From an uncultured Clostridia bacterium (lineage in GTDB: Bacteria > Bacillota > Clostridia > TANB77 > CAG-465): 64,000 nt of DNA. The translations under genes and the position numbers were made by a program. Positions 11,858-41,170 of the stretch are shown here, one piece after another. Below the pieces are notes generated by a model. It saw only the letters and a program-made list of their open reading frames with translations. It ran no database searches and had not been told where the DNA came from. Position 1 is the first letter of the stretch. Every line of letters starts with the position of its first letter. The stretch is from assembly GCA_944383015.1 (NCBI GenBank), contig CALWOC010000001.1, positions 148,997 to 212,996 of the forward strand, in the 5' to 3' direction.

Positions 11858-11886
11858 CCAGATAGTTTTAACTTCTGGTTATTTTC
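11856..11886. terminator. bidirectional terminator
   Basis: The arms AACCAGA and TCTGGTT form a stem with T-rich flanks. Confidence 0.5.
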
Positions 11887-12356
11887 TATTCTAAAATTTC
11901 TTCTAAAAAAATTGGTTCATCTACAAAAATAAGTGGTCTTCTTGCACTGTTTATATCATATTCTGTAAAAACACTTTCCTTCTTTATATTATATTTTTCT
12001 CTTAATCTTTTAATTATTCCTTTGAGTGATATTAATTCTTTTTTAGTAAACTTTCCGTCTTTATCTAAGCATAGCATTATTCCTATACTATCACTATCTA
12101 TATCAACATTTTGTGAACAAATTGCTTTTTCATTTTCTGGAATTATATTAATTATTTCACCATTAGTTCCAATTATGTAATGACATGAAAATTCTCTATC
12201 ATCTCTATACTTACTCATTTCAATTATATTTCTATTTTTAAGACAACTAAAGCCATTATATCTAGAAGATGTTATTATTATTTTTTGAGGAGTATCTATC
12301 TTCTCCATTCTTCTTGTATTATCACTCTTTGTTAAATAATATTTTTTTACTTTCAT
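11886..12356 (-). CDS. putative N-acetylmuramoyl-L-alanine amidase (amidase_2/PGRP-like)
   Basis: The segment CHYIIGTNGEIINIIPENEKA resembles the amidase_2 HYVIxxDGxIxQ block. The match is weak. Confidence 0.4.
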   Translation of the reverse strand: MKVKKYYLTKSDNTRRMEKIDTPQKIIITSSRYNGFSCLKNRNIIEMSKYRDDREFSCHYIIGTNGEIINIIPENEKAICSQNVDIDSDSIGIMLCLDKDGKFTKKELISLKGIIKRLREKYNIKKESVFTEYDINSARRPLIFVDEPIFLEEILE

Positions 12357-12464: not shown

Positions 12465-13559
12465 ATGAAAATAGGAATAGTTGGTTTACCAAATGTTGGA
12501 AAATCTACACTTTTTAATGCTATTACAAAAGCAGGAGCAGAAAGTGCAAATTATCCATTCTGTACAATTGAGCCAAATATAGGTATGGTATGTGTACCAG
12601 ATAAAAGAATAGATGTTTTATCTAAAATGTACGATACAGATAAGACAACTTATGCAACTATTGAGTTTGTAGATATTGCTGGACTAGTAAAAGGTGCTTC
12701 AAAAGGAGAAGGACTTGGAAATAAATTTTTATCTCACATTCGTGAAACTGATGCCATTGCACATGTTGTAAGATGTTTTGAGGATGAGCAAATTGTTCAT
12801 GTAGATGGAAAAATAGATCCAATAAGTGATATTGAAACAATATCTTTAGAACTTGTTTTTGCAGACATAGAAACTATATCTAAAAGAATGGATAGAGTTG
12901 GAAAAATGACAAAATCAGGAGATAAAAAGGCAATTGCAGAAATGGAATTACTAAGAAGAATTAAAGAACATTTAGATAATGGTAATCCTGTAAGAACAAT
13001 GGAACTTACAGATGATGAAAAAGAAATGATAAAAGATGCCTTCTTTTTAACTGACAAAAAAGTAATTTACGTTGCAAATGTATCTGAAGAACAAATCTCT
13101 TCAATAGATACAGATCCATATGTTCAAAAAGTTAAAGAGTATGCAAAAGCAGAAGGTGCTGAAGTTATTGCTCTTTGTGCTAAACTCGAAGAAGAACTAT
13201 CAGAACTTGATGATGAAGATAAAGAAATGCTTATGCAAGACTATGGTATTGATGAATCTGGTCTAGATAAATTAATAAAAGCTAGTTACTCTTTACTTGG
13301 TCTTATCTCTTTTCTTACCGCTGGAAAACAAGAATGTAGAGCTTGGACTATAAAAAAAGGAACAAAAGCTCCACAAGCTGCTGGTAAAATTCATTCTGAT
13401 TTTGAAAGAGGATTTATAAAAGCAGAAGTTGTATCTTATGACGATTTAATAAAATATGGTAGTATGAATGCAACTAAAGAAAAAGGATTAGTTAGACTAG
13501 AAGGAAAAGAATATGTTGTAAAAGATGGAGATATAATATTATTTAGATTTAACGTATAA
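12465..13559 (+). CDS. ychF: ribosome-binding ATPase YchF (Obg-family GTPase-like)
   Basis: The N-terminal MKIGIVGLPNVGKSTLFNA G1 motif, a TGS-like C-terminal domain and a length of 364 aa all fit YchF. A TTGACA-16-TATAAT promoter lies at 12407-12434. Confidence 0.9.
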   Translation: MKIGIVGLPNVGKSTLFNAITKAGAESANYPFCTIEPNIGMVCVPDKRIDVLSKMYDTDKTTYATIEFVDIAGLVKGASKGEGLGNKFLSHIRETDAIAHVVRCFEDEQIVHVDGKIDPISDIETISLELVFADIETISKRMDRVGKMTKSGDKKAIAEMELLRRIKEHLDNGNPVRTMELTDDEKEMIKDAFFLTDKKVIYVANVSEEQISSIDTDPYVQKVKEYAKAEGAEVIALCAKLEEELSELDDEDKEMLMQDYGIDESGLDKLIKASYSLLGLISFLTAGKQECRAWTIKKGTKAPQAAGKIHSDFERGFIKAEVVSYDDLIKYGSMNATKEKGLVRLEGKEYVVKDGDIILFRFNV

Positions 13560-13675: not shown

Positions 13676-13704
13676 TTGACTTTTAGTATCAAGTAGATTA
13701 TAAT
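13676..13704 (+). promoter_or_regulatory. promoter of the tRNA-Ile2/Met - tRNA-Tyr pair
   Basis: The sequence reads TTGACT, a 17-nt spacer, then TATAAT. The first tRNA starts 21 nt downstream. Confidence 0.6.
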
Positions 13705-13725
13705 AATAACTGTCCACAGTGATGT

Positions 13726-13802
13726 GGGCCTTTAGCTCAGTTGGTCAGAGCACTCGGCTCATAACCGAATGGTCCGGGGTTCGAATCCCTGAAGGCCCAC
13801 CA
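13726..13802 (+). tRNA. tRNA with anticodon CAU, most likely tRNA-Ile2 (lysidine) rather than elongator Met
   Basis: The 77-nt cloverleaf has anticodon loop CTCATAA and an encoded CCA. The body (GGGCCTTTAGCTCAGTTGGTCAGAGC...) resembles Bacillus tRNA-Ile(CAU) as I remember it. Assigning Ile versus Met needs a tRNA classifier. Confidence 0.8.
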
Positions 13803-13817
13803 TTTATATTATTCTTT

Positions 13818-13903
13818 GGGTAGGTGCCCGAGTGGCTAAAGGGGGCAGACTGTAAATCTGTTGGCTTACGCCTACGATGGTTCGAATCCATCCCTGCCCA
13901 CCA
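13818..13903 (+). tRNA. tRNA-Tyr (anticodon GUA)
   Basis: This 86-nt class II tRNA has anticodon loop CTGTAAA, a long variable arm and an encoded CCA. Confidence 0.9.
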
Positions 13904-13918
13904 TAAATAAATGGTTTT

Positions 13919-13948
13919 ATATCAATACATCGGTATTGATATTTTTTA
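13919..13948 (+). terminator. terminator after the tRNA pair
   Basis: A 10-bp perfect stem (ATATCAATAC / GTATTGATAT) is followed by TTTTT. Confidence 0.7.
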
Positions 13949-14094
13949 TGTCATTAATTATTTACAAATTTCTACATAATTTTTATTATATTCAAAATTT
14001 TTAATTCAAATTTATTTAATTTCAAAAAAAATAACAAATCCTTTATATATATATTACTACAGTTAAAAGCTATTGCTTTTGAAAGGAGAACAAC

Positions 14095-15059
14095 ATGGGA
14101 CAAGATTTAACTGAACGATTAATACAAAAATCTCAAGAAGCATTTATTTTATCTATTGAGACATATAATAAACCAACTATAAAATATAGAGTTGAAAGCT
14201 TTTCTTTTTTTATATGTAATGCTTGGGAACTAATGCTAAAAGCACACTTAATTAAACAAAATAAAAGTATATATTATAAAGATAAGCCAGATAGAACTAT
14301 AAGTTTAAGTGAATGTATAAAACGTATATTTACAAATGATAAAGATCCACTTAGATTAAACTTAGAAAAAATAATTGAACTTAGAGATACTAGTACACAT
14401 TTTATTACAGAAGAATATGAAATGTTATATATTCCTCTATTTCAGGCATGTGTATTTAACTTTGCTGAAAAAATACAGCAGTTTCATAATGTTGATATAA
14501 GCAAACTTGTACCTCAAAATTTTTTAACTATAACTACAAATATGAAATCTTTTAATGAGACAGAAATTAGAGCTAAATATCCAGAAGAATTGTCTAAAAA
14601 ATACTTAACACTTATGCTACTCTTACTCCATTAATTCAAAACAATAATAACAATTTTGCCATAAAAATAGAACATTATCACTATATTACAAAGAATAAAA
14701 ATGAAGCAACTGAACTGTTGTTTATTGATAACAATGCTTCAGAAAATGTAAAAGTAATAAAAGAATTAAAAGATCCAAATGTAACACATAAATACAATAT
14801 GAAAAAATTAAATCAAGAAGTATCACAAAGATTACAAAAAATAGGTATAGACTTAAAATTTAATCAATATCATTTTAAACTTTTTTGTAACTATTTTAAT
14901 ATAAAAAGCAATCCAAAATTTTGTTTTATAAATAAGATTGGAGCATATCCTACATATAGTTATTCCTTAGGCGCAATAGATTTTATTGTAAATGAAATAA
15001 AAAAATATTCAAATAATATTATTTCAAATCTTAAAGAAAAGTTAAAAAAAGAGAGTTAA
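14095..15059 (+). pseudogene. disrupted gene for a DUF3644-like protein with an HEPN-type Rx4H motif
   Basis: Two ORFs (179 and 113 aa) are joined by a 1-nt frameshift in an A6 run at about 14590-14600. After the frameshift the second frame reads ...KILNTYATLTPLIQNNNNN.... The N-terminus (ETYNKPTIKYRVESFSFFICNAWELMLKAHL) matches a conserved family that I remember as DUF3644. An ELRDTSTHF (Rx4H) motif is present. The annotated TAA stop is followed by 33 further in-frame sense codons in a GC-richer tract (see findings). Confidence 0.5.
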
Positions 15060-15217
15060 CCCCAGGAGCAAAGGATTTCTAAATATAACCTAAGTTATAT
15101 CTACTCCCATTCAGGAACCCAGCCTTATCCTTCACAAGTTAACTCCATTAATTAATTATATCATATATATTAAAATATTCAAGTTTTGAAAATTTTATCT
15201 ACAAGAACAAACAAAAA

Positions 15218-15252
15218 TAGGCAGTGAATAAAATCACTGTCTATTTTTAGAT
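15218..15252. terminator. bidirectional terminator
   Basis: The arms AGGCAGTGA and TCACTGTCT form a stem with one G-U pair. T runs are present on both strands. Confidence 0.55.
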
Positions 15253-15422
15253 TTTTTTTTAATTTTTGTAATATTAGTTATCTCTTCTACTTTTATTTTT
15301 TGCTCATCTATGGATGTTAAATTGCTTAATGGAAATATGAAATCATATTTCTCTCTATTTGGATTCTGAGCGTCTTTTCTTTCTATGTCTAATTGATACT
15401 CGATATTTTTCTTTTCTTTCAT
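15234..15422 (-). CDS. small hypothetical protein (62 aa), last gene of the metzincin operon
   Basis: The ORF is lysine-rich and hydrophilic. There is no convincing RBS and no recognisable family. Confidence 0.25.
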   Translation of the reverse strand: MKEKKNIEYQLDIERKDAQNPNREKYDFIFPLSNLTSIDEQKIKVEEITNITKIKKKSKNRQ

Positions 15423-15473
15423 TTTTGATACGTTTTCACCTCATATATAGTATGAGCATTTATTAACTTAATA

Positions 15474-16247
15474 TTACTTTCCTTTTAAATAGTTTTCCAT
15501 GTCTACATCAACAGAATTTCCATCTGCATCTTTTATCGTATTAGTTTTTTCATCATATTCTTTAAATCCATATTTTAGTCCACTACATATGTATAAAACT
15601 CCATCCTTTTCATATGTTGTAGTTAAATATTGTTTGTCTGGTTCTACTTCTGCAATGTATACGTCGTTTTCACAAGTTACATTAACATATTGGTTATCTT
15701 TATATTTACTAATCACATCATCTTCTATTCCTAATAGACTTTTAATTTCTTTTACGATAAATTTCCCACCAGGTATAATCATTTCTTTTTCTCCTTCTAA
15801 ATCATTTAAATAGTTTCTTTCTACATTTACTTTAACCCTAGTTGATGGAACTCCATCTATTATTTCATATCCTAAAATTTCTTTAACCTCTATGACACTA
15901 ATGTAATTTATTGGCGCATTATCATAAATATTACTGCTGTTATCAAAAATTACTTCTCCAGAAATCACCTTTTCTTCTTCTTCAATAGGTTTTTCTTCTT
16001 TTCCTGTAATTTTAATTTCCTCATTAACTTCACTCTGATTATCAGTTAACAACTTAATAGCTAAAATGCTTACTCCTGTAATAAGTATAATAATAAAAAT
16101 ACTAGCAATTCTTAATCTTCTAGTTCTACGCCTTTTTTCTTCTGCTATTCTTTTAAATAGCTTCTTAGTATCAAACATACTATCAGGAACCTTAATTTCC
16201 TTATACTTTTTTTCAAGTATTTTATCGATTTCATTCATATCTTTCAT
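15474..16247 (-). CDS. single-pass membrane protein with a cytoplasmic N-terminus and an extracytoplasmic beta-rich domain (anti-sigma-factor-like topology)
   Basis: A basic stretch RRRTRRLR precedes one TM helix (IASIFIIILITGVSILAI), followed by about 190 aa of extracellular sequence. The start was set at the ATG 9 nt after GAGAGG. Confidence 0.45.
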   Translation of the reverse strand: MKDMNEIDKILEKKYKEIKVPDSMFDTKKLFKRIAEEKRRRTRRLRIASIFIIILITGVSILAIKLLTDNQSEVNEEIKITGKEEKPIEEEEKVISGEVIFDNSSNIYDNAPINYISVIEVKEILGYEIIDGVPSTRVKVNVERNYLNDLEGEKEMIIPGGKFIVKEIKSLLGIEDDVISKYKDNQYVNVTCENDVYIAEVEPDKQYLTTTYEKDGVLYICSGLKYGFKEYDEKTNTIKDADGNSVDVDMENYLKGK

Positions 16248-16284
16248 TTCAATCAACCTCTCATTTTAAAATTTACATATGAAT

Positions 16285-16860
16285 TTAATTATATAAATAA
16301 TTTATTGTATCATGATCACATTGCTGAACAGTAGTTACATAAGTATCTGATATATCTGGACACATTATACTATAGCTATTTTCATAGTGATTTAGTCCAA
16401 ATGCATGTCCCATCTCATGTTTTGCTGTTCTTATATCATATGAGTTTCCATTTGAAGTATTAAATACTATCTCAGTATAAAAATAATTATAAGTTGGCTT
16501 TGCTGTTCTTCTAGCAACCAATGTACCATCTGTATTCCAATATGTTGTATAACCTAATACATTACTTGTTAGATGAACATCTTGACTAGAACCTCTAGAA
16601 TAAAAATCCATATGAGTTGCATAGTTACTAGATACTGCTGTCATATATATTGGGTTCCACCCGTATCCTGTGTCTTCCCAATTGTTTGCAGCTGAAACAA
16701 TATTTGAGTAATATCCAGAAGCTGTACCATCTATATAATAGCAACAGTTTCCTACCCCTCTTGTAAATTTTGCATCATTTTCATATGTAGGAGTCATCGC
16801 AAAAACAGAACATCCTAACGCACAAAAAAATACCAAATAACAAAATAAAAACTTCCTCAT
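16285..16860 (-). CDS. secreted zinc metalloprotease, metzincin, snapalysin (M7)-like
   Basis: A signal peptide (MRKFLFCYLVFFCALGCSVFA) is present. The motif HEMGHAFGLNH matches HExxHxxGxxH and is followed by a Met-turn SIMCP. An AGGAGGG RBS is present. The mature size of about 160 aa and the HExGHxxGLxxHY pattern resemble Streptomyces snapalysin. Confidence 0.6.
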   Translation of the reverse strand: MRKFLFCYLVFFCALGCSVFAMTPTYENDAKFTRGVGNCCYYIDGTASGYYSNIVSAANNWEDTGYGWNPIYMTAVSSNYATHMDFYSRGSSQDVHLTSNVLGYTTYWNTDGTLVARRTAKPTYNYFYTEIVFNTSNGNSYDIRTAKHEMGHAFGLNHYENSYSIMCPDISDTYVTTVQQCDHDTINYLYN

Positions 16861-16941
16861 AAAATCCCTCCTACATATATAGACGGAATTCATAACGATT
16901 TTGTCACATTTTTTTTGATTTTTTTCAAAAAAATGGCATTT

Positions 16942-17823
16942 TTATGTATTTTTTAGCTCTTCTTCCTTTATTCCAGTAATATTTTCTATATCTTTTATAC
17001 TAATTCCCTTTTCTAGCATTGCTTTTGCAATTTCTAATTGAGCAGTATATCGACCTTGTCTAATCCCTTCTTCCTTTCCTTTTTTAAGTCCTTCTTTTAT
17101 ACCCTTTTGTTCCCTATTATATAGTGCAGATGCCAAATCTCTTTCATATTTTTCTCTTAACTCTACTTTTCTTTTAAAAGCTTCGTCTCCTTCTAAATAT
17201 TCTAGTTCTTCTTTCGCTTTTTTTATAGTGTTATTCTTTTTCATTATTTCATCTAACTCCTTTGAATTTTCACTATCTATAAAAGTTAACCATTGATTTG
17301 TTACATCTTCCTTATTATAATTACTTTTTCTAAACTTTGGTAGCTCTATATAATAATACTTCATATTTGTATTTATTTCATGTTTTCTATGCTTGTTTAA
17401 CACCATTACTGTATCATTTATATATTCCTCAAATGGAAAATAATTATAATTTAATACACATATTACTATTACTGGTTTTATTTCATTATACAAATCATTT
17501 TTCTTTAGTTACTCTGATATTAACTTTGAACCATAAAATGTTGACCTTTTTATTATATTAAATTCATTTTTTAACTGAATTTCTATATTTATTATACTGT
17601 CATCATTTATTATTGCTCTAACATCTATTATTCCTAGCTTATCTTCTTCTATATCTTTTTCTAAATGTATATCATGCATTATCTCTATTTTCTTTATGTT
17701 TATATTTAGTAAAGAAGATAAAAACTCTGTTAAAAAAGCCTCATTTCCTTTATGAGCAAATATTCTTTTAAATACTATATCTCTTTTTACAGATAGTCTT
17801 TTTTCTTGTAACTTTTCAGTCAT
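16942..17823 (-). pseudogene. Rpn-family recombination-promoting nuclease / PD-(D/E)XK putative transposase (YhgA-like), disrupted by an in-frame TAA
   Basis: The N-terminal DIVFKRIF...IDVRAIINDDSIINIEIQ nuclease core and the C-terminal ...RQGRYTAQLEIAKAMLEKGISIKDIENITGI... repeats are characteristic of the family. The two ORFs are in the same frame and separated only by a TAA at 17509-17511 (...KLISE*LKKNDLYNEIKPV...). Confidence 0.65.
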
Positions 17824-18027
17824 TTCCTACCTCCTATACTATCATAAAAATTGTTACTTTTCAATATTGATATTATTTTTAGATTAAAATGCGCATTTTT
17901 TTATCCTATTTAAAGCTAAATTATTTATGATAAAGGTATTATATATATATTGAATTATATTGTAAATACTATCTTATACATGTTACATAACTAGAACTTT
18001 TTAAAAATATTTAATTGTAGAAAAAAA

Positions 18028-18062
18028 AAGTACTATACTCTATTTAAGTATAGCACTTCTCA
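18028..18062 (-). terminator. terminator of the nusB-xseA-xseB operon
   Basis: The arms AGTGCTATACT and AGTATAGTACT form a stem followed by a T9 run on the minus strand. Confidence 0.6.
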
Positions 18063-27484: not shown

Positions 27485-29740
27485 CTACTGTTCTATAACA
27501 TATTTTCCTAATATGTGTCTTTGTATTTTTAATAAATCTGCAGCTTTTGGTGCTTGACTTACTTTATCTATTATTGATGCTTTTACTTGTATACTATTTA
27601 GTTCCGCTTTTCCTAAAATATATCTTTGAAGCATTAATAAATCTCTTGCATTAATAACACCTGAGCCATCTACATCACCATATATAACAATTGTATATTC
27701 CTCAATTATAGCTCCATTTTCTTTAAACTGAATTTTTGTTCCAGTTCCTACTCTATCTTTATCTGATAACTCTTCTCCATTTATATTTACAACTGTTATG
27801 TCATAATTTGTAATAATTTTTTCTTTTATTTCTGAAACAAAATTATCTTCTAAGCTTATTTTAGTAAGTATACTATCTTCTAGTCTTAAAGAATCATCTA
27901 CTAAAATAGCATTATCTTCTTTTGTAACAGTAATATTTGCCTTTGCTGTGAAGCCTCCATCTTTAGTTTTAAACGTTAATGTAGCTTCTCCTATAGAATT
28001 TGCAATTATAATTTTGTCCTCAACAGAAACAACATCCGAATTTGAAGAAGTGATAGTATAATCTGTATTTGTTGCTGTGGAAGGTGTAATTACTGGCGTA
28101 ATTGCAAGTGAGTCTCCAACATGTAACATATAGTTTTCTTTTTCAAGGCTTATTCCTGTAACTTTATTTGATACAACATTTATTGTACAAATTGCAGTCT
28201 TTGCTTTGTCTTCTGTTGTTACAGTAATTGTTGCTATACCATTTTTTAAAGCTTTTACATTTCCTTTACTATCTACTGTAGCAATAGATTTATCTGAAGA
28301 ACTCCACTTTACGTTTTTATTATCCGCATTAGAAGGACTTACTGTAGCTTTAAGTTTTAAAGTATCACCAACATTTAAATTAGCATATGTTGTATCTAAG
28401 CTTACAGACTCAACTTCATTATACTTATATTCATATACCCATTTCTTAAGTATATATCCAATCCTTCCATCATCATATCTTATTTTATCATATAGTGTAT
28501 TTTGACCAATTCCAATTCTTGTAAATTTAGTCCTGTTTTCAGCTCCATCAACAGTCTCATATAGAACCTCTAGTATAGTTGATACTGTATCTGGACCTGT
28601 TCTAATCCAAAATTCATCTGTTGCTCCCGAATCTGATGGATCATCTAAATAAACTCTAGTATCATCTTCTATAAAATATACATCATCTGGCACTGGCATA
28701 CTTGCAACTTCTTCTGGCATATTTTCATATACTGGTATATGAAATTCAAATGGTGAGTTAATCATATTATAGCTATTATATGCATTGTATGTAATTAAAG
28801 CTTCTCCTTTTGGTCCAAATATATTTGTCATATATCCTGTTCCAAGTAACCACTGAGCTGTTCCAGGATTATTTACATCAAATCTTTCAAAATATATTGT
28901 ATCTTGTCCCCATTTTATATATTTACTATATATATACTCTATTCCACCTCTTAAAGCTGCTGAAACACTAGTCCAACCATTATTTCTTGCATAATTTAAT
29001 CCATTCGTAACTGCTGATTGTCCATTTGCATCATATGCTCCTATATTAAAGAAATTGTATACACCATAATCTCCATTAATTAGACTACCATTTACTATAT
29101 TCCCACTGTTTTCTTGTCTTATTCTTGAAGCAATATGAACAGGATTTATTCCAACTCCTTTCGATATGCTATGTATTAATTCAGCATAAGTTGTTCCTAA
29201 ATCATACCATGTACCATATGATTTATATTGGCTTTTATATTGTCCACCCATTGGTGTTGCAGCAAGTACACTTTGCACTGCATCAACACTTTGAGTTTGA
29301 CCATTATAACTTAATACCTCAAACTGAAATATTCCATTTTCATTAATAAAATTACGTGGATCTACTACATATGCAACAGCTTGTTTAGATGCTGTAACAT
29401 AATTTCCATCCTGATAATAATTTTTACCATCTCGCTTCCATTCTGCTCCATATATATCCTCAACTAAACTTATTCCTTCATTTACCTCATATGACTCGTG
29501 AGATAAAACTGTATTCCAGTCTAGTCCAGTATGTACCGCTTTAAATACCCAATTTGGATGCTTTTCTTTCAAAGCATTAATATATGGCATATATGAATCT
29601 GGAAAGTTTTCATCTATATAAGACACTGGTAAATCTGAATAAATAGCACCTTCTACTTCTCGAAAATTTATAGTTGAGGTTATAATACATATAACTAATA
29701 ACAATATTATCCCCTTAAACTTTAATTTTCTACTTTTCAT
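27485..29740 (-). CDS. secreted multidomain protein with a putative glucosaminidase-like peptidoglycan hydrolase domain, two Big_2 Ig-like domains and a C-terminal type I dockerin
   Basis: A signal peptide is present. Two Big_2 repeats are present (ATVSPSNADNKNVKWSSSDKSIATVDSKGNVKALKNGIATITVTT). The C-terminal dockerin has duplicated Ca-binding segments (GDVDGSGVINARDLLMLQRYILG and IDKVSQAPKAADLLKIQRHILG). Assigning the central domain to GH73/glucosaminidase is tentative. Confidence 0.5.
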   Translation of the reverse strand: MKSRKLKFKGIILLLVICIITSTINFREVEGAIYSDLPVSYIDENFPDSYMPYINALKEKHPNWVFKAVHTGLDWNTVLSHESYEVNEGISLVEDIYGAEWKRDGKNYYQDGNYVTASKQAVAYVVDPRNFINENGIFQFEVLSYNGQTQSVDAVQSVLAATPMGGQYKSQYKSYGTWYDLGTTYAELIHSISKGVGINPVHIASRIRQENSGNIVNGSLINGDYGVYNFFNIGAYDANGQSAVTNGLNYARNNGWTSVSAALRGGIEYIYSKYIKWGQDTIYFERFDVNNPGTAQWLLGTGYMTNIFGPKGEALITYNAYNSYNMINSPFEFHIPVYENMPEEVASMPVPDDVYFIEDDTRVYLDDPSDSGATDEFWIRTGPDTVSTILEVLYETVDGAENRTKFTRIGIGQNTLYDKIRYDDGRIGYILKKWVYEYKYNEVESVSLDTTYANLNVGDTLKLKATVSPSNADNKNVKWSSSDKSIATVDSKGNVKALKNGIATITVTTEDKAKTAICTINVVSNKVTGISLEKENYMLHVGDSLAITPVITPSTATNTDYTITSSNSDVVSVEDKIIIANSIGEATLTFKTKDGGFTAKANITVTKEDNAILVDDSLRLEDSILTKISLEDNFVSEIKEKIITNYDITVVNINGEELSDKDRVGTGTKIQFKENGAIIEEYTIVIYGDVDGSGVINARDLLMLQRYILGKAELNSIQVKASIIDKVSQAPKAADLLKIQRHILGKYVIEQ

Positions 29741-39613: not shown

Positions 39614-41170
39614 CTAACTTTCTAAAACTTTCTTAAGTGTATCATTATAAAGTTTAGTTATTTTTTTATTATTACTTGAAAGTTCACTTATCTCCTGTCT
39701 TAAAAGCTTAATTAGATTTTCAAGTTCTAGCGTTGAATCTATATTATTTTCATCTATATATTTTTCTAAGTTTTCTGGTAAATCTATATAAATATATTTA
39801 GTATATGTAAATATATTATTATTTATATCAATACCAGAATCAATCTCTGCTATTACTGAAGATATCTTATCATTACTATCTTTTAATAACATATTTATAT
39901 TGCTTGTATAAAAGTTATACTCCCTTTTTATTACGTCTTTATATACATTATATAACTCATCAATTTTGGCAGAGTTTTCTTCAATTTTTTGAAGTTTCTC
40001 TTGTTCTAACTCCTCTTTAGTCTTCTTATCTTCATTTGTTGTTTCTTTAGCATTATCATCATTACTTAAATTTTTCTTATAATCTTTAATCTTAGTATTC
40101 AAATCATCAAGTACTGTATTCATGTAATCTAGTGTAGCCTCTGATGTAACCTCGTAATTTATTATAGTAACTGTCTCTTCACTATTTTCATCTACTTTTT
40201 TTGTAGTTGTAGATTTTTCAATATATGAATCCATTTTATCTATTCTATTTTCATATCTTGAAGCTATATCTTCTAGTAATGCTAAATAATCAATTTCTTC
40301 TAAATTTTCTTCATATATCTTTGAAATCTGAGTACTAAAATCTATAACTTCAGACTCATTTGTTAATGATTCTTTCATTAAATTATTAAGATCTTCATCT
40401 AAAATTAAAGTATTTTTAGAAGCTACATTTATACCATATAATTTATCTGACAATGTATCATATGTTTTTCTATATTCCGTAGCATCAACACCTAAAAACT
40501 CTAATTTTTTTATTTCATCAGATATTGTCTCTAAATCACCAGTCACTTTTCTTACTCTATCTCTTATATCTTTTATATTAGATCTTTTTGTCTCACTAAT
40601 ATAATCTCTAAAAATATTATTTGTCTGTGTCTCTATATAGTCTTCTACACTATTTACTTGAGATAAATACTGTATACTTTTTACTAAAGTAAGTTTTAAT
40701 TGTGCTAAAGTCATAGTATTATCTATATCATACTCTTTAGTTGAAACCACAATAGCTCCTAAGTAAGATTCTGGAATTCTTATTTTTTTATTTTTTACTA
40801 TATCTCTAATTGAATATTTTTCTGCAACATCAGTTGTAGATATATCTCGCTTTACTCTAAGTTTGTTTTCTACAACTGCTGTAAGACCAAACATTGGTGC
40901 ATCCATATTTAGTCTTATTGCTGGATAATATTCAAATTCTTTTTGCTCTTTAGAATTTGCTATATCTTTATCTATTTTGTCTAATTTAGAATCAATTTCA
41001 GTTAAATATTCATTAATTAACAATAATATATTTTCTTTTTCTTCTTTATTACTAAGCTTATCTGTATTTTCCTCAGTACTTTGCTCTTCTTCTGCATACA
41101 AAATAGGAATAATGCAGCTAAAAGAGATTGTAATTAATAGTGTTATGAATAAAAACTTAATTTTTTTCAT
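39614..41170 (-). CDS. secreted coiled-coil protein, hypothetical
   Basis: A signal peptide is followed by about 480 aa rich in E/K/L heptad-like repeats. Confidence 0.35.
   Translation of the reverse strand: MKKIKFLFITLLITISFSCIIPILYAEEEQSTEENTDKLSNKEEKENILLLINEYLTEIDSKLDKIDKDIANSKEQKEFEYYPAIRLNMDAPMFGLTAVVENKLRVKRDISTTDVAEKYSIRDIVKNKKIRIPESYLGAIVVSTKEYDIDNTMTLAQLKLTLVKSIQYLSQVNSVEDYIETQTNNIFRDYISETKRSNIKDIRDRVRKVTGDLETISDEIKKLEFLGVDATEYRKTYDTLSDKLYGINVASKNTLILDEDLNNLMKESLTNESEVIDFSTQISKIYEENLEEIDYLALLEDIASRYENRIDKMDSYIEKSTTTKKVDENSEETVTIINYEVTSEATLDYMNTVLDDLNTKIKDYKKNLSNDDNAKETTNEDKKTKEELEQEKLQKIEENSAKIDELYNVYKDVIKREYNFYTSNINMLLKDSNDKISSVIAEIDSGIDINNNIFTYTKYIYIDLPENLEKYIDENNIDSTLELENLIKLLRQEISELSSNNKKITKLYNDTLKKVLES

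Follow-up and report, generated by a model that had tools for sequence, protein, structure and literature searches.

A structured, probably antisense RNA gene accompanies the candidate defence gene PDC-S19 in a composite tRNA-adjacent locus of an uncultured gut Clostridia bacterium

A 64,000-nucleotide (nt) stretch from an uncultured Clostridia bacterium (GenBank assembly GCA_944383015.1, contig CALWOC010000001.1, positions 148,997 to 212,996; hereafter the window) carries accessory-type genes between 13.7 and 17.9 kb, downstream of two tRNA genes. Every protein at this locus belongs to a described family and the islet is an ordinary mosaic; what is new is a strongly covarying, uncatalogued small RNA (sRNA) gene. 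It overlaps the 3' end of a broken gene of the PADLOC family PDC-S19 (hereafter S19), which joins a DUF3644 HEPN domain to a restriction endonuclease (REase)-like domain, EC042_2821, and it was found with every informative phage-borne DUF3644-REase gene examined. The region as a whole is very probably a composite of three layers, namely, an old core, a genus-level module and two separately acquired single-gene defence cassettes. The order of genes after ychF (12465-13559) is tRNA(CAT), tRNA-Tyr, the split DUF3644 gene, three minus-strand open reading frames (ORFs), a split Rpn gene and xseB-xseA-nusB. The window has a GC content of about 27%, and its nearest relatives are metagenome-assembled genomes of uncultured gut Clostridia. 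Loci of relatives and viral contigs used for comparison carry L numbers, and protein alleles and homologues carry P numbers.

Similarity between the DNA of the window and that of prophage loci ran past the S19 stop codon, and about 90 nt there were more conserved than the coding sequence. The element responsible is about 95 nt long, occupies 15052-15146 on the minus strand, overlaps the S19 stop codon and scored 97.5 bits with covariance model R1. Four helices, P1 to P4, were backed by compensatory changes. All 7 bp of P1 covary in alignment A3, the P2 pair G16-C77 occurs as GC in 34, AU in 8 and CG in 2 cases, P3 covaries, and P4 covaries at three of its four pairs; the covariation score was 0.28 to 0.41, compared to 0.07 or less for slid controls. 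The inner helix proposed by RNAalifold and minimum free energy folding (GGGG/CCUU and AAGG/CCUU) was replaced by GGC/GCC, as G16-C77 is compensated in 10 sequences. A possible GGA/UCC pseudoknot involves invariant positions, hence shows no covariation signal. The copy in the window differs from the consensus by a single change, G to A on the sense strand. Its interpretation as a sign of decay was withdrawn, since the antisense RNA still pairs there, through a U·G wobble, and because this only change keeps the pair, the sRNA gene looks intact beside the broken S19.

The 31-nt core of the element was present without mismatch in 22 IMG/VR contigs and the pattern of its 5' half in 97. The covariance model detected one full-length copy in each of 100 loci, with scores of 77 to 110 bits, and none in 670 kb of unrelated genomic loci; with one copy per S19 locus and none elsewhere in that sample, a dispersed repeat or miniature inverted-repeat transposable element was rejected. 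Among 80 viral loci picked solely by homology to the S19 protein (47 to 74% identity), 74 had the element directly 3' of the gene and the other six were cut at the contig end, so that all informative genes (74 of 74) possessed it. Conversely, 81 of the 96 informative copies of the element followed S19 or an S19 remnant. The association is asymmetric, with no informative S19 gene lacking the RNA and the RNA sometimes standing without S19, and the genomic coupling of a DUF3644-REase gene with a structured convergent sRNA gene is obligatory. The element also stands, unannotated, beside genes annotated as DUF3644 in phages cultured on Staphylococcus, Listeria, Streptococcus, Corynebacterium, and Flavonifractor. 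Carriers among these are the StB20-like phage of Staphylococcus (NC_028821, about 40000-40084), Listeria phage LP-HM00113468, and Corynebacterium phage Poushou (about 28551-28625). Searches of Rfam 15 with short stretches of the window and of L081 returned no relevant match to it even at E ≤ 10. The searchable HEPN literature mentions no RNA partner for the PDC-S19/EC042_2821 family and contained nothing beyond the 2013 survey (PMC3710099).

The polarity of the RNA was read from three features. On the S19-sense strand, the covarying helices contain 64 C·A or A·C cells compared to 13 of G·U, and the antisense strand turns the C·A cells into G·U wobbles. On the antisense side, a near-consensus σ70-type promoter (TTGACA-17-TATAAT, often TG-extended) lies at a fixed distance, with a mean score of 9.8 out of 12; scores of at least 10 were reached in 51 of 83 distinct copies and in 1.5% of shuffles, and on the sense side none of the 83 reached them. 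In 65 of these copies, the antisense 3' end is followed by a U-run. In the window, the promoter reads TTGAAT-16-TATAAT with TG (15155-15182, minus strand), and the U-tract is at 15044-15050. Because of the base-pair asymmetry, the fixed-distance promoter and the U-tract, the element is regarded as a convergent antisense sRNA gene, and the initial model of a structure in the sense-strand 3' untranslated region (UTR) was dropped as the primary one.

Some copies of the element have different neighbors. In L070, L113, L129, L149, and L160, S19 is replaced by other cargo upstream of the kept element, next to an integrase (a 520-aa SIR2-like protein, a 359-aa protein, and a 216-aa protein are examples), and what is left of S19 beside it in L074 and L075 is the final ~50 nt. 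The pattern resembles an exchange of cassettes at a fixed boundary, and together with the fact that the element is necessarily also part of the S19 mRNA, it would suit an element acting as a sense-strand 3'-UTR or terminator, or as a DNA recombination site at the cassette boundary. Such a role is unlikely. Four covarying helices speak against a plain duplex-DNA site, the excess of C·A over G·U cells and the placing of promoter and U-tract fit an antisense transcript, and the nearby integrases come from two unrelated families, tyrosine and serine. The P1 closing sequences resemble the attC consensus only loosely, and the interior of the element is conserved. Orphan copies with neither an S19 gene nor a promoter of their own were found in viral contigs (L067-L069, L077, L088/L089, L091/L095, and L145), where they lie outside the lysogeny regions, with structural, replication or terminase genes of the phage as neighbors. 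Their orientation is such that transcription of those genes would yield the same RNA polarity. These orphan copies may be anti-defence decoys; phage ΦTE reportedly uses a pseudo-ToxI in a comparable manner.

With its antisense RNA, S19 looks like a protein-RNA module of toxin-antitoxin (TA) type. The chances are evenly balanced, in our judgment of the comparative data, for a more specific proposal, in which PDC-S19 would be a two-component module with an obligatory four-helix antisense sRNA of about 90 to 95 nt as antitoxin or regulator, and orphan RNAs of phages would disarm hosts armed with S19. The RNA would restrain the nuclease either in a type I-like manner, through antisense pairing with the 3' end of its mRNA, or in a type III-like manner, by binding to the protein as RCd22 does to AbiF. 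Because the RNA's own sequence is strongly conserved, a function that goes further than simple antisense pairing is favored. Loss of the toxin first, with the antitoxin kept, is the expected order of decay for such pairs, and it is the order seen in the window clone. Phages with S19 and the sRNA infect Clostridia, Staphylococcus, Listeria, Streptococcus, and Corynebacterium. Should the RNA regulate S19 or act as its antitoxin, a second component would be added to a widespread candidate defence system, heterologous assays of S19 alone would be mis-designed, a HEPN enzyme would join the toxins controlled by antisense RNA, and the phage orphan RNAs would become candidate anti-defence genes.

The S19 pseudogene itself extends over 14095-15059 on the plus strand and is read as two ORFs, 14095-14634 and 14718-15059 (179 and 113 aa). 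Its sole lesion is a 1-nt deletion in the A-run at 14596-14601, which splits the gene and leaves no intact PDC-S19 ORF in the window. Addition of one A restored an ORF of 321 aa, whose product gave a full-length match to PADLOC PDC-S19 (E 1.3e-131; residues 4-319 aligned with positions 3-327 of the 328 in the profile) and matched DUF3644 with 195.7 bits in Pfam and, in its C-terminal part, EC042_2821 (PF18740) with 87.7 bits against a gathering cut-off of 24.9. The identification of a DUF3644-like HEPN gene from the sequence was thereby borne out, together with its frameshift; the premature stop reported beside it is merely out of frame, and no second lesion was found, as the single inserted A sufficed for the full-length ORF. 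A frameshift combined with a nonsense codon is instead the state of S19 in the sister species (L001), which has a different frameshift and E109*. The HEPN superfamily takes in DUF3644 (PMC3710099), and the Rx4-6H motif of HEPN proteins is present as ELRDTSTH, with R97 and H102 (R97-x4-H102) invariant in 20 homologues. In the REase-like domain, a D...ExK-like motif (IDN...KELK) is visible, in which E224 and K226 are nearly invariant.

Intact and broken S19 alleles circulate side by side. The A7 allele occurs naturally at the same locus in L050, 99.2% identical to the window, where it encodes the intact 321-aa protein P0001, and in L053 (97.2% identical over the region) both S19 and Rpn are intact. 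The 179-aa fragment was called identically on at least 22 contigs from independent metagenomes, several of which match the window at 100% identity throughout the region, one of them sharing the split Rpn of 104 and 183 aa; a sequencing or assembly error as the cause of the lesions was rejected on the ground of these identical splits. A different lesion, Q11*, was present in L051, L052, L054, L055, and L056, and further truncated alleles encode 249-aa, 275-aa, and 212-aa forms. Counting the window and at least four other lesions, S19 was knocked out independently at least five times within the species complex. A second run of six A residues lies at 14836-14841. Shortened by one A, it would read CAA AAA TAG, which fits the 249-aa alleles. 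The occurrence of these alleles in both a window-like (P0125) and an L001-like (P0128) lineage suggests recurrent slippage at this run, as judged from the protein ends.

Such homopolymer changes raise the question of whether the frameshift is a reversible, phase-variable switch operated by slippage of the A6/A7 run. In favor of this, the homopolymer is altered by ±1, A6 and A7 alleles both circulate in one species, and the second run apparently slipped independently in two lineages. Seven A residues are short for a contingency locus, though, and a GC content of 27% makes A-runs likely by chance. The nonsense alleles Q11* and E109* are not reversible by slippage, and the A6 clone, identical over 3 to 5 kb in several samples, is a stable lineage. 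Switching was for these reasons considered improbable, and knock-out is preferred as the explanation of the S19 lesions.

The second broken gene, a member of the Rpn family (TIGR01784/PF12784) of PD-(D/E)XK nucleases (16942-17823, minus strand), contains exactly one in-frame TAA, as first reported, at 17509-17511, where CAA changed to TAA. This nonsense codon at position 105 splits the gene into 104 and 183 aa and would abolish the long nuclease form. With Gln restored, the protein matched TIGR01784 (142.5 bits, cut-off 52.1, residues 14-291) as well as PDDEXK_2 and HTH_Rpn_C. The intact 301-aa allele P0135, with Q at the mutated codon, lies between xseB and the metzincin gene described below on at least 23 contigs, and Rpn is also intact in L051-L056. 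The window allele has 293 aa, compared to 301 aa in P0135 and P0136, being without one 8-aa KKGKEEGI unit in the C-terminal repeat region (16942-17200). In L001, about 650 bp were deleted inside Rpn. The upstream boundary of the Rpn insertion is the intrinsic terminator of the nusB-xseA-xseB operon (18025-18061, minus strand), and xseB, xseA, and nusB do resume past Rpn. In L003, L008, and L009, the metzincin promoter lies 60 to 100 nt past xseB. The xseB-metzincin spacer is a recurrent insertion site. In L010 (5115-6977) and L036, this spacer holds two tandem Spo0A_C genes (186 and 227 aa) and a 122-aa ORF.

The A-rich slippery run at the S19 frameshift and the single TAA in Rpn would also be compatible with split genes kept functional by programmed frameshifting or stop-codon readthrough. 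An uninterrupted gene is the rule among relatives and at least 3,600 homologues, though, other strains are broken at other sites, and most of Rpn was subsequently deleted in L001, which makes functional split genes extremely improbable. Knock-out of both genes is again the preferred explanation.

The closest non-allelic homologues of S19 (73 to 77% identity) sit in the lysogeny modules of prophages. The prophages of L057-L060 lie at tRNA-Gly and have the gene flanked by a cI-like repressor and a tyrosine integrase; in L061-L064, its neighbors are a serine recombinase and lysis genes. The S19 cassette most likely came from a temperate-phage lysogeny module, judging from these homologous sequences. 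Its point of entry can be read from an empty site in L002, where the same tRNA-operon hairpin is present and the distance from tRNA-Tyr to the 62-aa ORF, the first of the three minus-strand ORFs, is only about 72 nt. S19 accordingly entered between two terminators. Its left boundary is that of the tRNA operon, a hairpin with a T-run recognized by sequence reading (13919-13948, plus strand). Its right boundary is that of the 62-aa ORF, a bidirectional intrinsic terminator at 15213-15248 that is shared by S19 and the 62-aa ORF in the window and is also found in the empty site.

The distribution of the genes was analyzed in a synteny survey based on a YchF scan with one genome per species, followed by tblastn mapping of the islet genes. 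S19 was restricted to the window and L001, and Rpn to the window, apart from a remnant of it in L001. The two genes occupy different spacers, one on each side of the block formed by the metzincin, a membrane protein and the 62-aa ORF. These three ORFs lie between tRNA-Tyr and xseB in seven related species (L001, L003, L007, L008, L009, L012, and L027), and in L010 and L036, where an inversion parts the block from the tRNAs, they stay joined to xseB. More distantly, the 62-aa ORF directly adjoins xseB in L015, L016, and L032, and it occurs without the metzincin and membrane protein in L011 and L013; because of this, it is taken to be older than the neighboring module. GC content, third-position GC content (GC3) and codon choice of all islet genes were within about 1.5 standard deviations of the window genes, except for the GC3 of the 62-codon ORF. 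No integrase ORF was present in the islet according to the ORF list and a Pfam scan. No att-like or tRNA-derived direct repeats were found around the block, the sole tRNA-like repeat being the T-arm similarity between both tRNAs.

Within the clade, the 3' side of tRNA-Tyr varies in content, with a prophage in L004, an SDR gene in L027 and L011, and a Fic gene in L013. The prophage of L004 (11592-17000; a related species, YchF 94% identical) lies directly 3' of tRNA-Tyr and carries a glucosaminidase and LysM lysin, holin-like genes and a collagen-repeat tail fiber. In the 10 kb visible, it stands where the entire block running from the 62-aa ORF to xseB would be expected. This variability, the adjacency to the tRNAs and the accessory type of the genes would agree with one ancient mobile insertion at a tRNA 3' end comprising the whole 13.7-17.9 kb, and the absence of an integrase is what its loss, with that of the att sites, would leave. 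Against such an insertion stand the synteny of the trio across the genus, its tie to xseB and not to the tRNAs, the age of the 62-aa ORF relative to the module, the different distribution and spacers of S19 and Rpn, the lack of compositional deviation, and lesions that are recent single-nucleotide changes. A one-time insertion is very improbable, and the three-layer composite is retained.

Several parts of the original prediction, a single old and eroded islet of decaying genes at a tRNA integration hotspot, have to be revised in this light. Its reports of a missing integrase and of no duplicated tRNA 3' end were confirmed, and the full-length PDC-S19 match agreed with its placing of the repaired DUF3644-like protein. 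Accessory cargo is an apt description of S19 and Rpn, which are absent from most relatives, and not of the trio, which is syntenic across the genus. The hotspot holds insofar as the tRNA flank is variable and the nearest S19 relatives sit on tRNA-integrated prophages; the trio is linked to xseB instead. A single islet is contradicted by the conservation of the trio between tRNA-Tyr and xseB and by the separate spacers of S19 and Rpn; the block is not absent from relatives as a unit, only S19 and Rpn being lineage-specific, and neither GC content nor codon usage sets it apart. Great age does not apply, as each broken gene is one nucleotide from intact alleles at the same locus in strains 97 to 99% identical.

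The history proposed for the locus starts from an old core that would consist of ychF, the tRNA(CAT)/tRNA-Tyr pair, the 62-aa ORF and the nusB-xseA-xseB operon. At the level of the genus, a module of an extracytoplasmic function (ECF) promoter, a secreted matrixin-like protease, an ECF sigma factor and an anti-sigma factor, in this order, would have been inserted between xseB and the 62-aa ORF. The sigma gene would later have been lost once on the lineage to the window, with the protease, the anti-sigma factor and the promoter motif retained under selection. The two spacers flanking the module would have received PDC-S19, accompanied by the convergent antisense sRNA gene, and Rpn in the ancestor that the species shares with its sister. 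Both nuclease genes, if costly, would segregate in the population as intact and several independently knocked-out alleles. The window clone would carry a knock-out of each, the A7 to A6 frameshift and the Gln to TAA change, next to an sRNA gene and promoter that look intact. The locus would then be a clean natural example of the gain and repeated loss of defence genes beside a conserved cluster.

Five points weigh against this history. PDC-S19 is a PADLOC candidate only, and we infer a defence role of S19 or Rpn here. Neither a remnant of phage genes nor an att site is present beside S19 at this locus, so that its route of acquisition is likewise one we infer. For the polarity of the sigma loss, the evidence is a distance tree built from five proteins. 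The view covers 64 kb of the genome, and a trans-encoded sigma factor could sit outside it. The A-run lesion in S19 could in principle be reversible switching and not decay.

The three minus-strand ORFs described from the sequence, a 62-aa ORF, a 260-aa protein with one transmembrane segment and a metzincin, were all confirmed. The metzincin (16285-16860, minus strand) starts at the ATG at 16860 behind the ribosome-binding site AGGAGGG and has 191 aa, compared to 202 aa in the listed ORF. It is a secreted, minimal matrixin-like enzyme with the zinc site HExxHxxGxxH (HEMGHAFGLNH) and the Met-turn SIMCP. Peptidase_M10 matched with 31.7 bits against a cut-off of 24, the aligned part being only the C-terminal 47 residues, and the weak best PDB matches were MMP-12 (E 0.009), MMP-1, and karilysin. 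Snapalysins have the zinc site HExxHxxGxxD with Asp as third ligand. The snapalysin-like (M7) assignment made earlier was rejected, since His stands where Asp is expected, and the Pfam scan gave no M7 profile match. The metzincin is kept in nine related species.

The 62-aa ORF (15234-15422, minus strand) encodes a clade-restricted, conserved small protein with 48 homologue clusters. Neither it nor the 260-aa protein had a match in PADLOC, NCBIfam or Pfam. Ratios of nonsynonymous to synonymous substitution rates (dN/dS) in comparison with L001 and L003 were 0.16 to 0.26 for the metzincin, 0.29 to 0.44 for the membrane protein, and 0.13 to 0.25 for the 62-aa ORF, all below 1 though above those of most neighboring housekeeping genes, which indicates that the trio is under purifying selection.

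The membrane protein (15474-16256, minus strand) has a conserved N-terminal helix and conserved C-terminal motifs in addition to its single transmembrane segment. In L010, L012, L027, and L036, a gene for an ECF sigma factor of 175 to 193 aa (Pfam Sigma70_r2, r4_2, and ECF) lies between the metzincin and the membrane protein, and its stop codon overlaps the start of the latter. Because this sigma gene is directly upstream in the basal relatives, the membrane protein is regarded as an orphaned anti-sigma factor, which backs the anti-sigma topology guessed from the sequence. In the window, a gap of 28 nt separates the metzincin and membrane protein genes with no adjacent ECF sigma gene, and tblastn and a hidden Markov model built from four sequences revealed no sigma-like ORF in the 64 kb or in the sigma-less relatives. 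A single loss of the sigma gene is proposed because the sigma-bearing lineages are basal and paraphyletic to the sigma-less clade in a neighbor-joining distance tree of five proteins.

An ECF-type promoter-like motif, TGTGAC-N17-CGTCTA (16880-16908, minus strand), precedes the metzincin and was found in all ten orthologous regions, with a diverging spacer between its boxes. The motif is TGAAAC-N16/17-CGTCTAT in the sigma-bearing lineages and TGTGAC-N17-CGTCTAT in the window, L001, L003, and L007, so that the -35 box of the candidate promoter in the window differs from that of sigma-bearing relatives. An anti-sigma factor and a target protease kept under selection after the loss of their cognate ECF sigma factor are a small puzzle of regulatory evolution.

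Both tRNA genes are real. ARAGORN called tRNA(CAT) at 13726-13802 (plus strand; as Met; Rfam tRNA 70.9 bits) and tRNA-Tyr (GTA) at 13818-13903 (plus strand; also in Rfam). The former carries G1-C72, C4-G69, and C5-G68. The G1-C72 pair rules out an initiator tRNA, and the other two pairs resemble the TilS determinants of tRNA-Ile2, making a lysidine-containing tRNA-Ile2 more likely than an elongator tRNA-Met. The pair of tRNAs after ychF is kept in about 25 related loci. In L008, L009, L016, and L032, it is inverted relative to ychF, indicating small local inversions around the pair. Farther upstream, an Amidase_2 gene between murC and ychF (11886-12356, minus strand) evolves fast, with 57 to 87% identity where YchF has 89 to 98% and with a dN/dS of 0.13 to 0.16; it is absent from L008 and L009.

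Several parts of the locus have described counterparts among known systems. Operons of ECF sigma and anti-sigma factors (σW and σM type) have TGAAAC-N16-CGTxxx promoters. The relatives of the window share with them the order of promoter, target, ECF sigma factor and single-pass anti-sigma factor with overlapping stop and start codons; the window departs from it in having no sigma gene, in its -35 box TGTGAC, and in an anti-sigma N-terminal domain that matches no Pfam family. Type I TA systems of Firmicutes prophages, such as bsrG/SR4 and txpA/RatA, have a convergent antisense RNA overlapping the 3' end of the toxin gene, and their toxins are small membrane peptides. The S19 pair is like them in being prophage-borne and in its convergent small RNA with its own σ70-type promoter, terminator and 3'-end overlap. 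It is unlike them in that the partner is a 321-aa protein with two nuclease domains and not a small hydrophobic peptide, and in that the sequence and fold of the RNA are far more conserved than simple antisense pairing needs.

The Rpn gene resembles the Rpn nucleases described as a genes-within-genes TA defence system (Zhong et al. 2023, PMC10400941) as a single-gene insertion without inverted repeats or target duplication, and its alleles vary by four-residue units (KKGK/EEGI) in the C-terminal helix region. Hypervariability of four-residue repeats is a hallmark of the C-terminal domain, the RpnS antitoxin (PMC10400941). The window copy differs from that system in its nonsense codon at position 105.

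For S19, a HEPN family overlapping DUF3644 and fused to a novel REase domain was described in a survey (Anantharaman et al. 2013, PMC3710099). Its full-length profile match, its two domains, DUF3644 and EC042_2821, and its invariant Rx4H motif place S19 with the PDC-S19/EC042_2821 proteins, from which the window copy differs as a frameshifted pseudogene. The anti-plasmid proteins Ishtar (ist1/ist2) and HEC-08, compared here by their published descriptions, likewise have an N-terminal HEPN domain of the DUF3644 type and are single-gene systems of patchy distribution between core genes (bioRxiv 10.64898/2026.07.06.735840; 10.1101/2024.01.29.577857). According to these two sources, mutation of the HEPN histidine abolishes defence by HEC-08, and its C-terminal domains are zinc fingers and not a REase; the passages of both papers on DUF3644 and Ishtar name no RNA partner. 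AbiF/RCd22 is a prophage-borne HEPN toxin neutralized by a conserved structured non-coding RNA (PMC12373285). Like AbiF/RCd22 and the type III TA systems, S19 is a prophage HEPN protein paired with a conserved structured RNA; AbiF has Abi_2 in place of DUF3644, and its RNA lies upstream on the same strand, in contrast to the convergent, 3'-overlapping RNA of S19. The comparison suggests that S19 and its sRNA are a nuclease toxin with an RNA partner, a variant of a described kind whose novelty comes from the RNA and not from the island.

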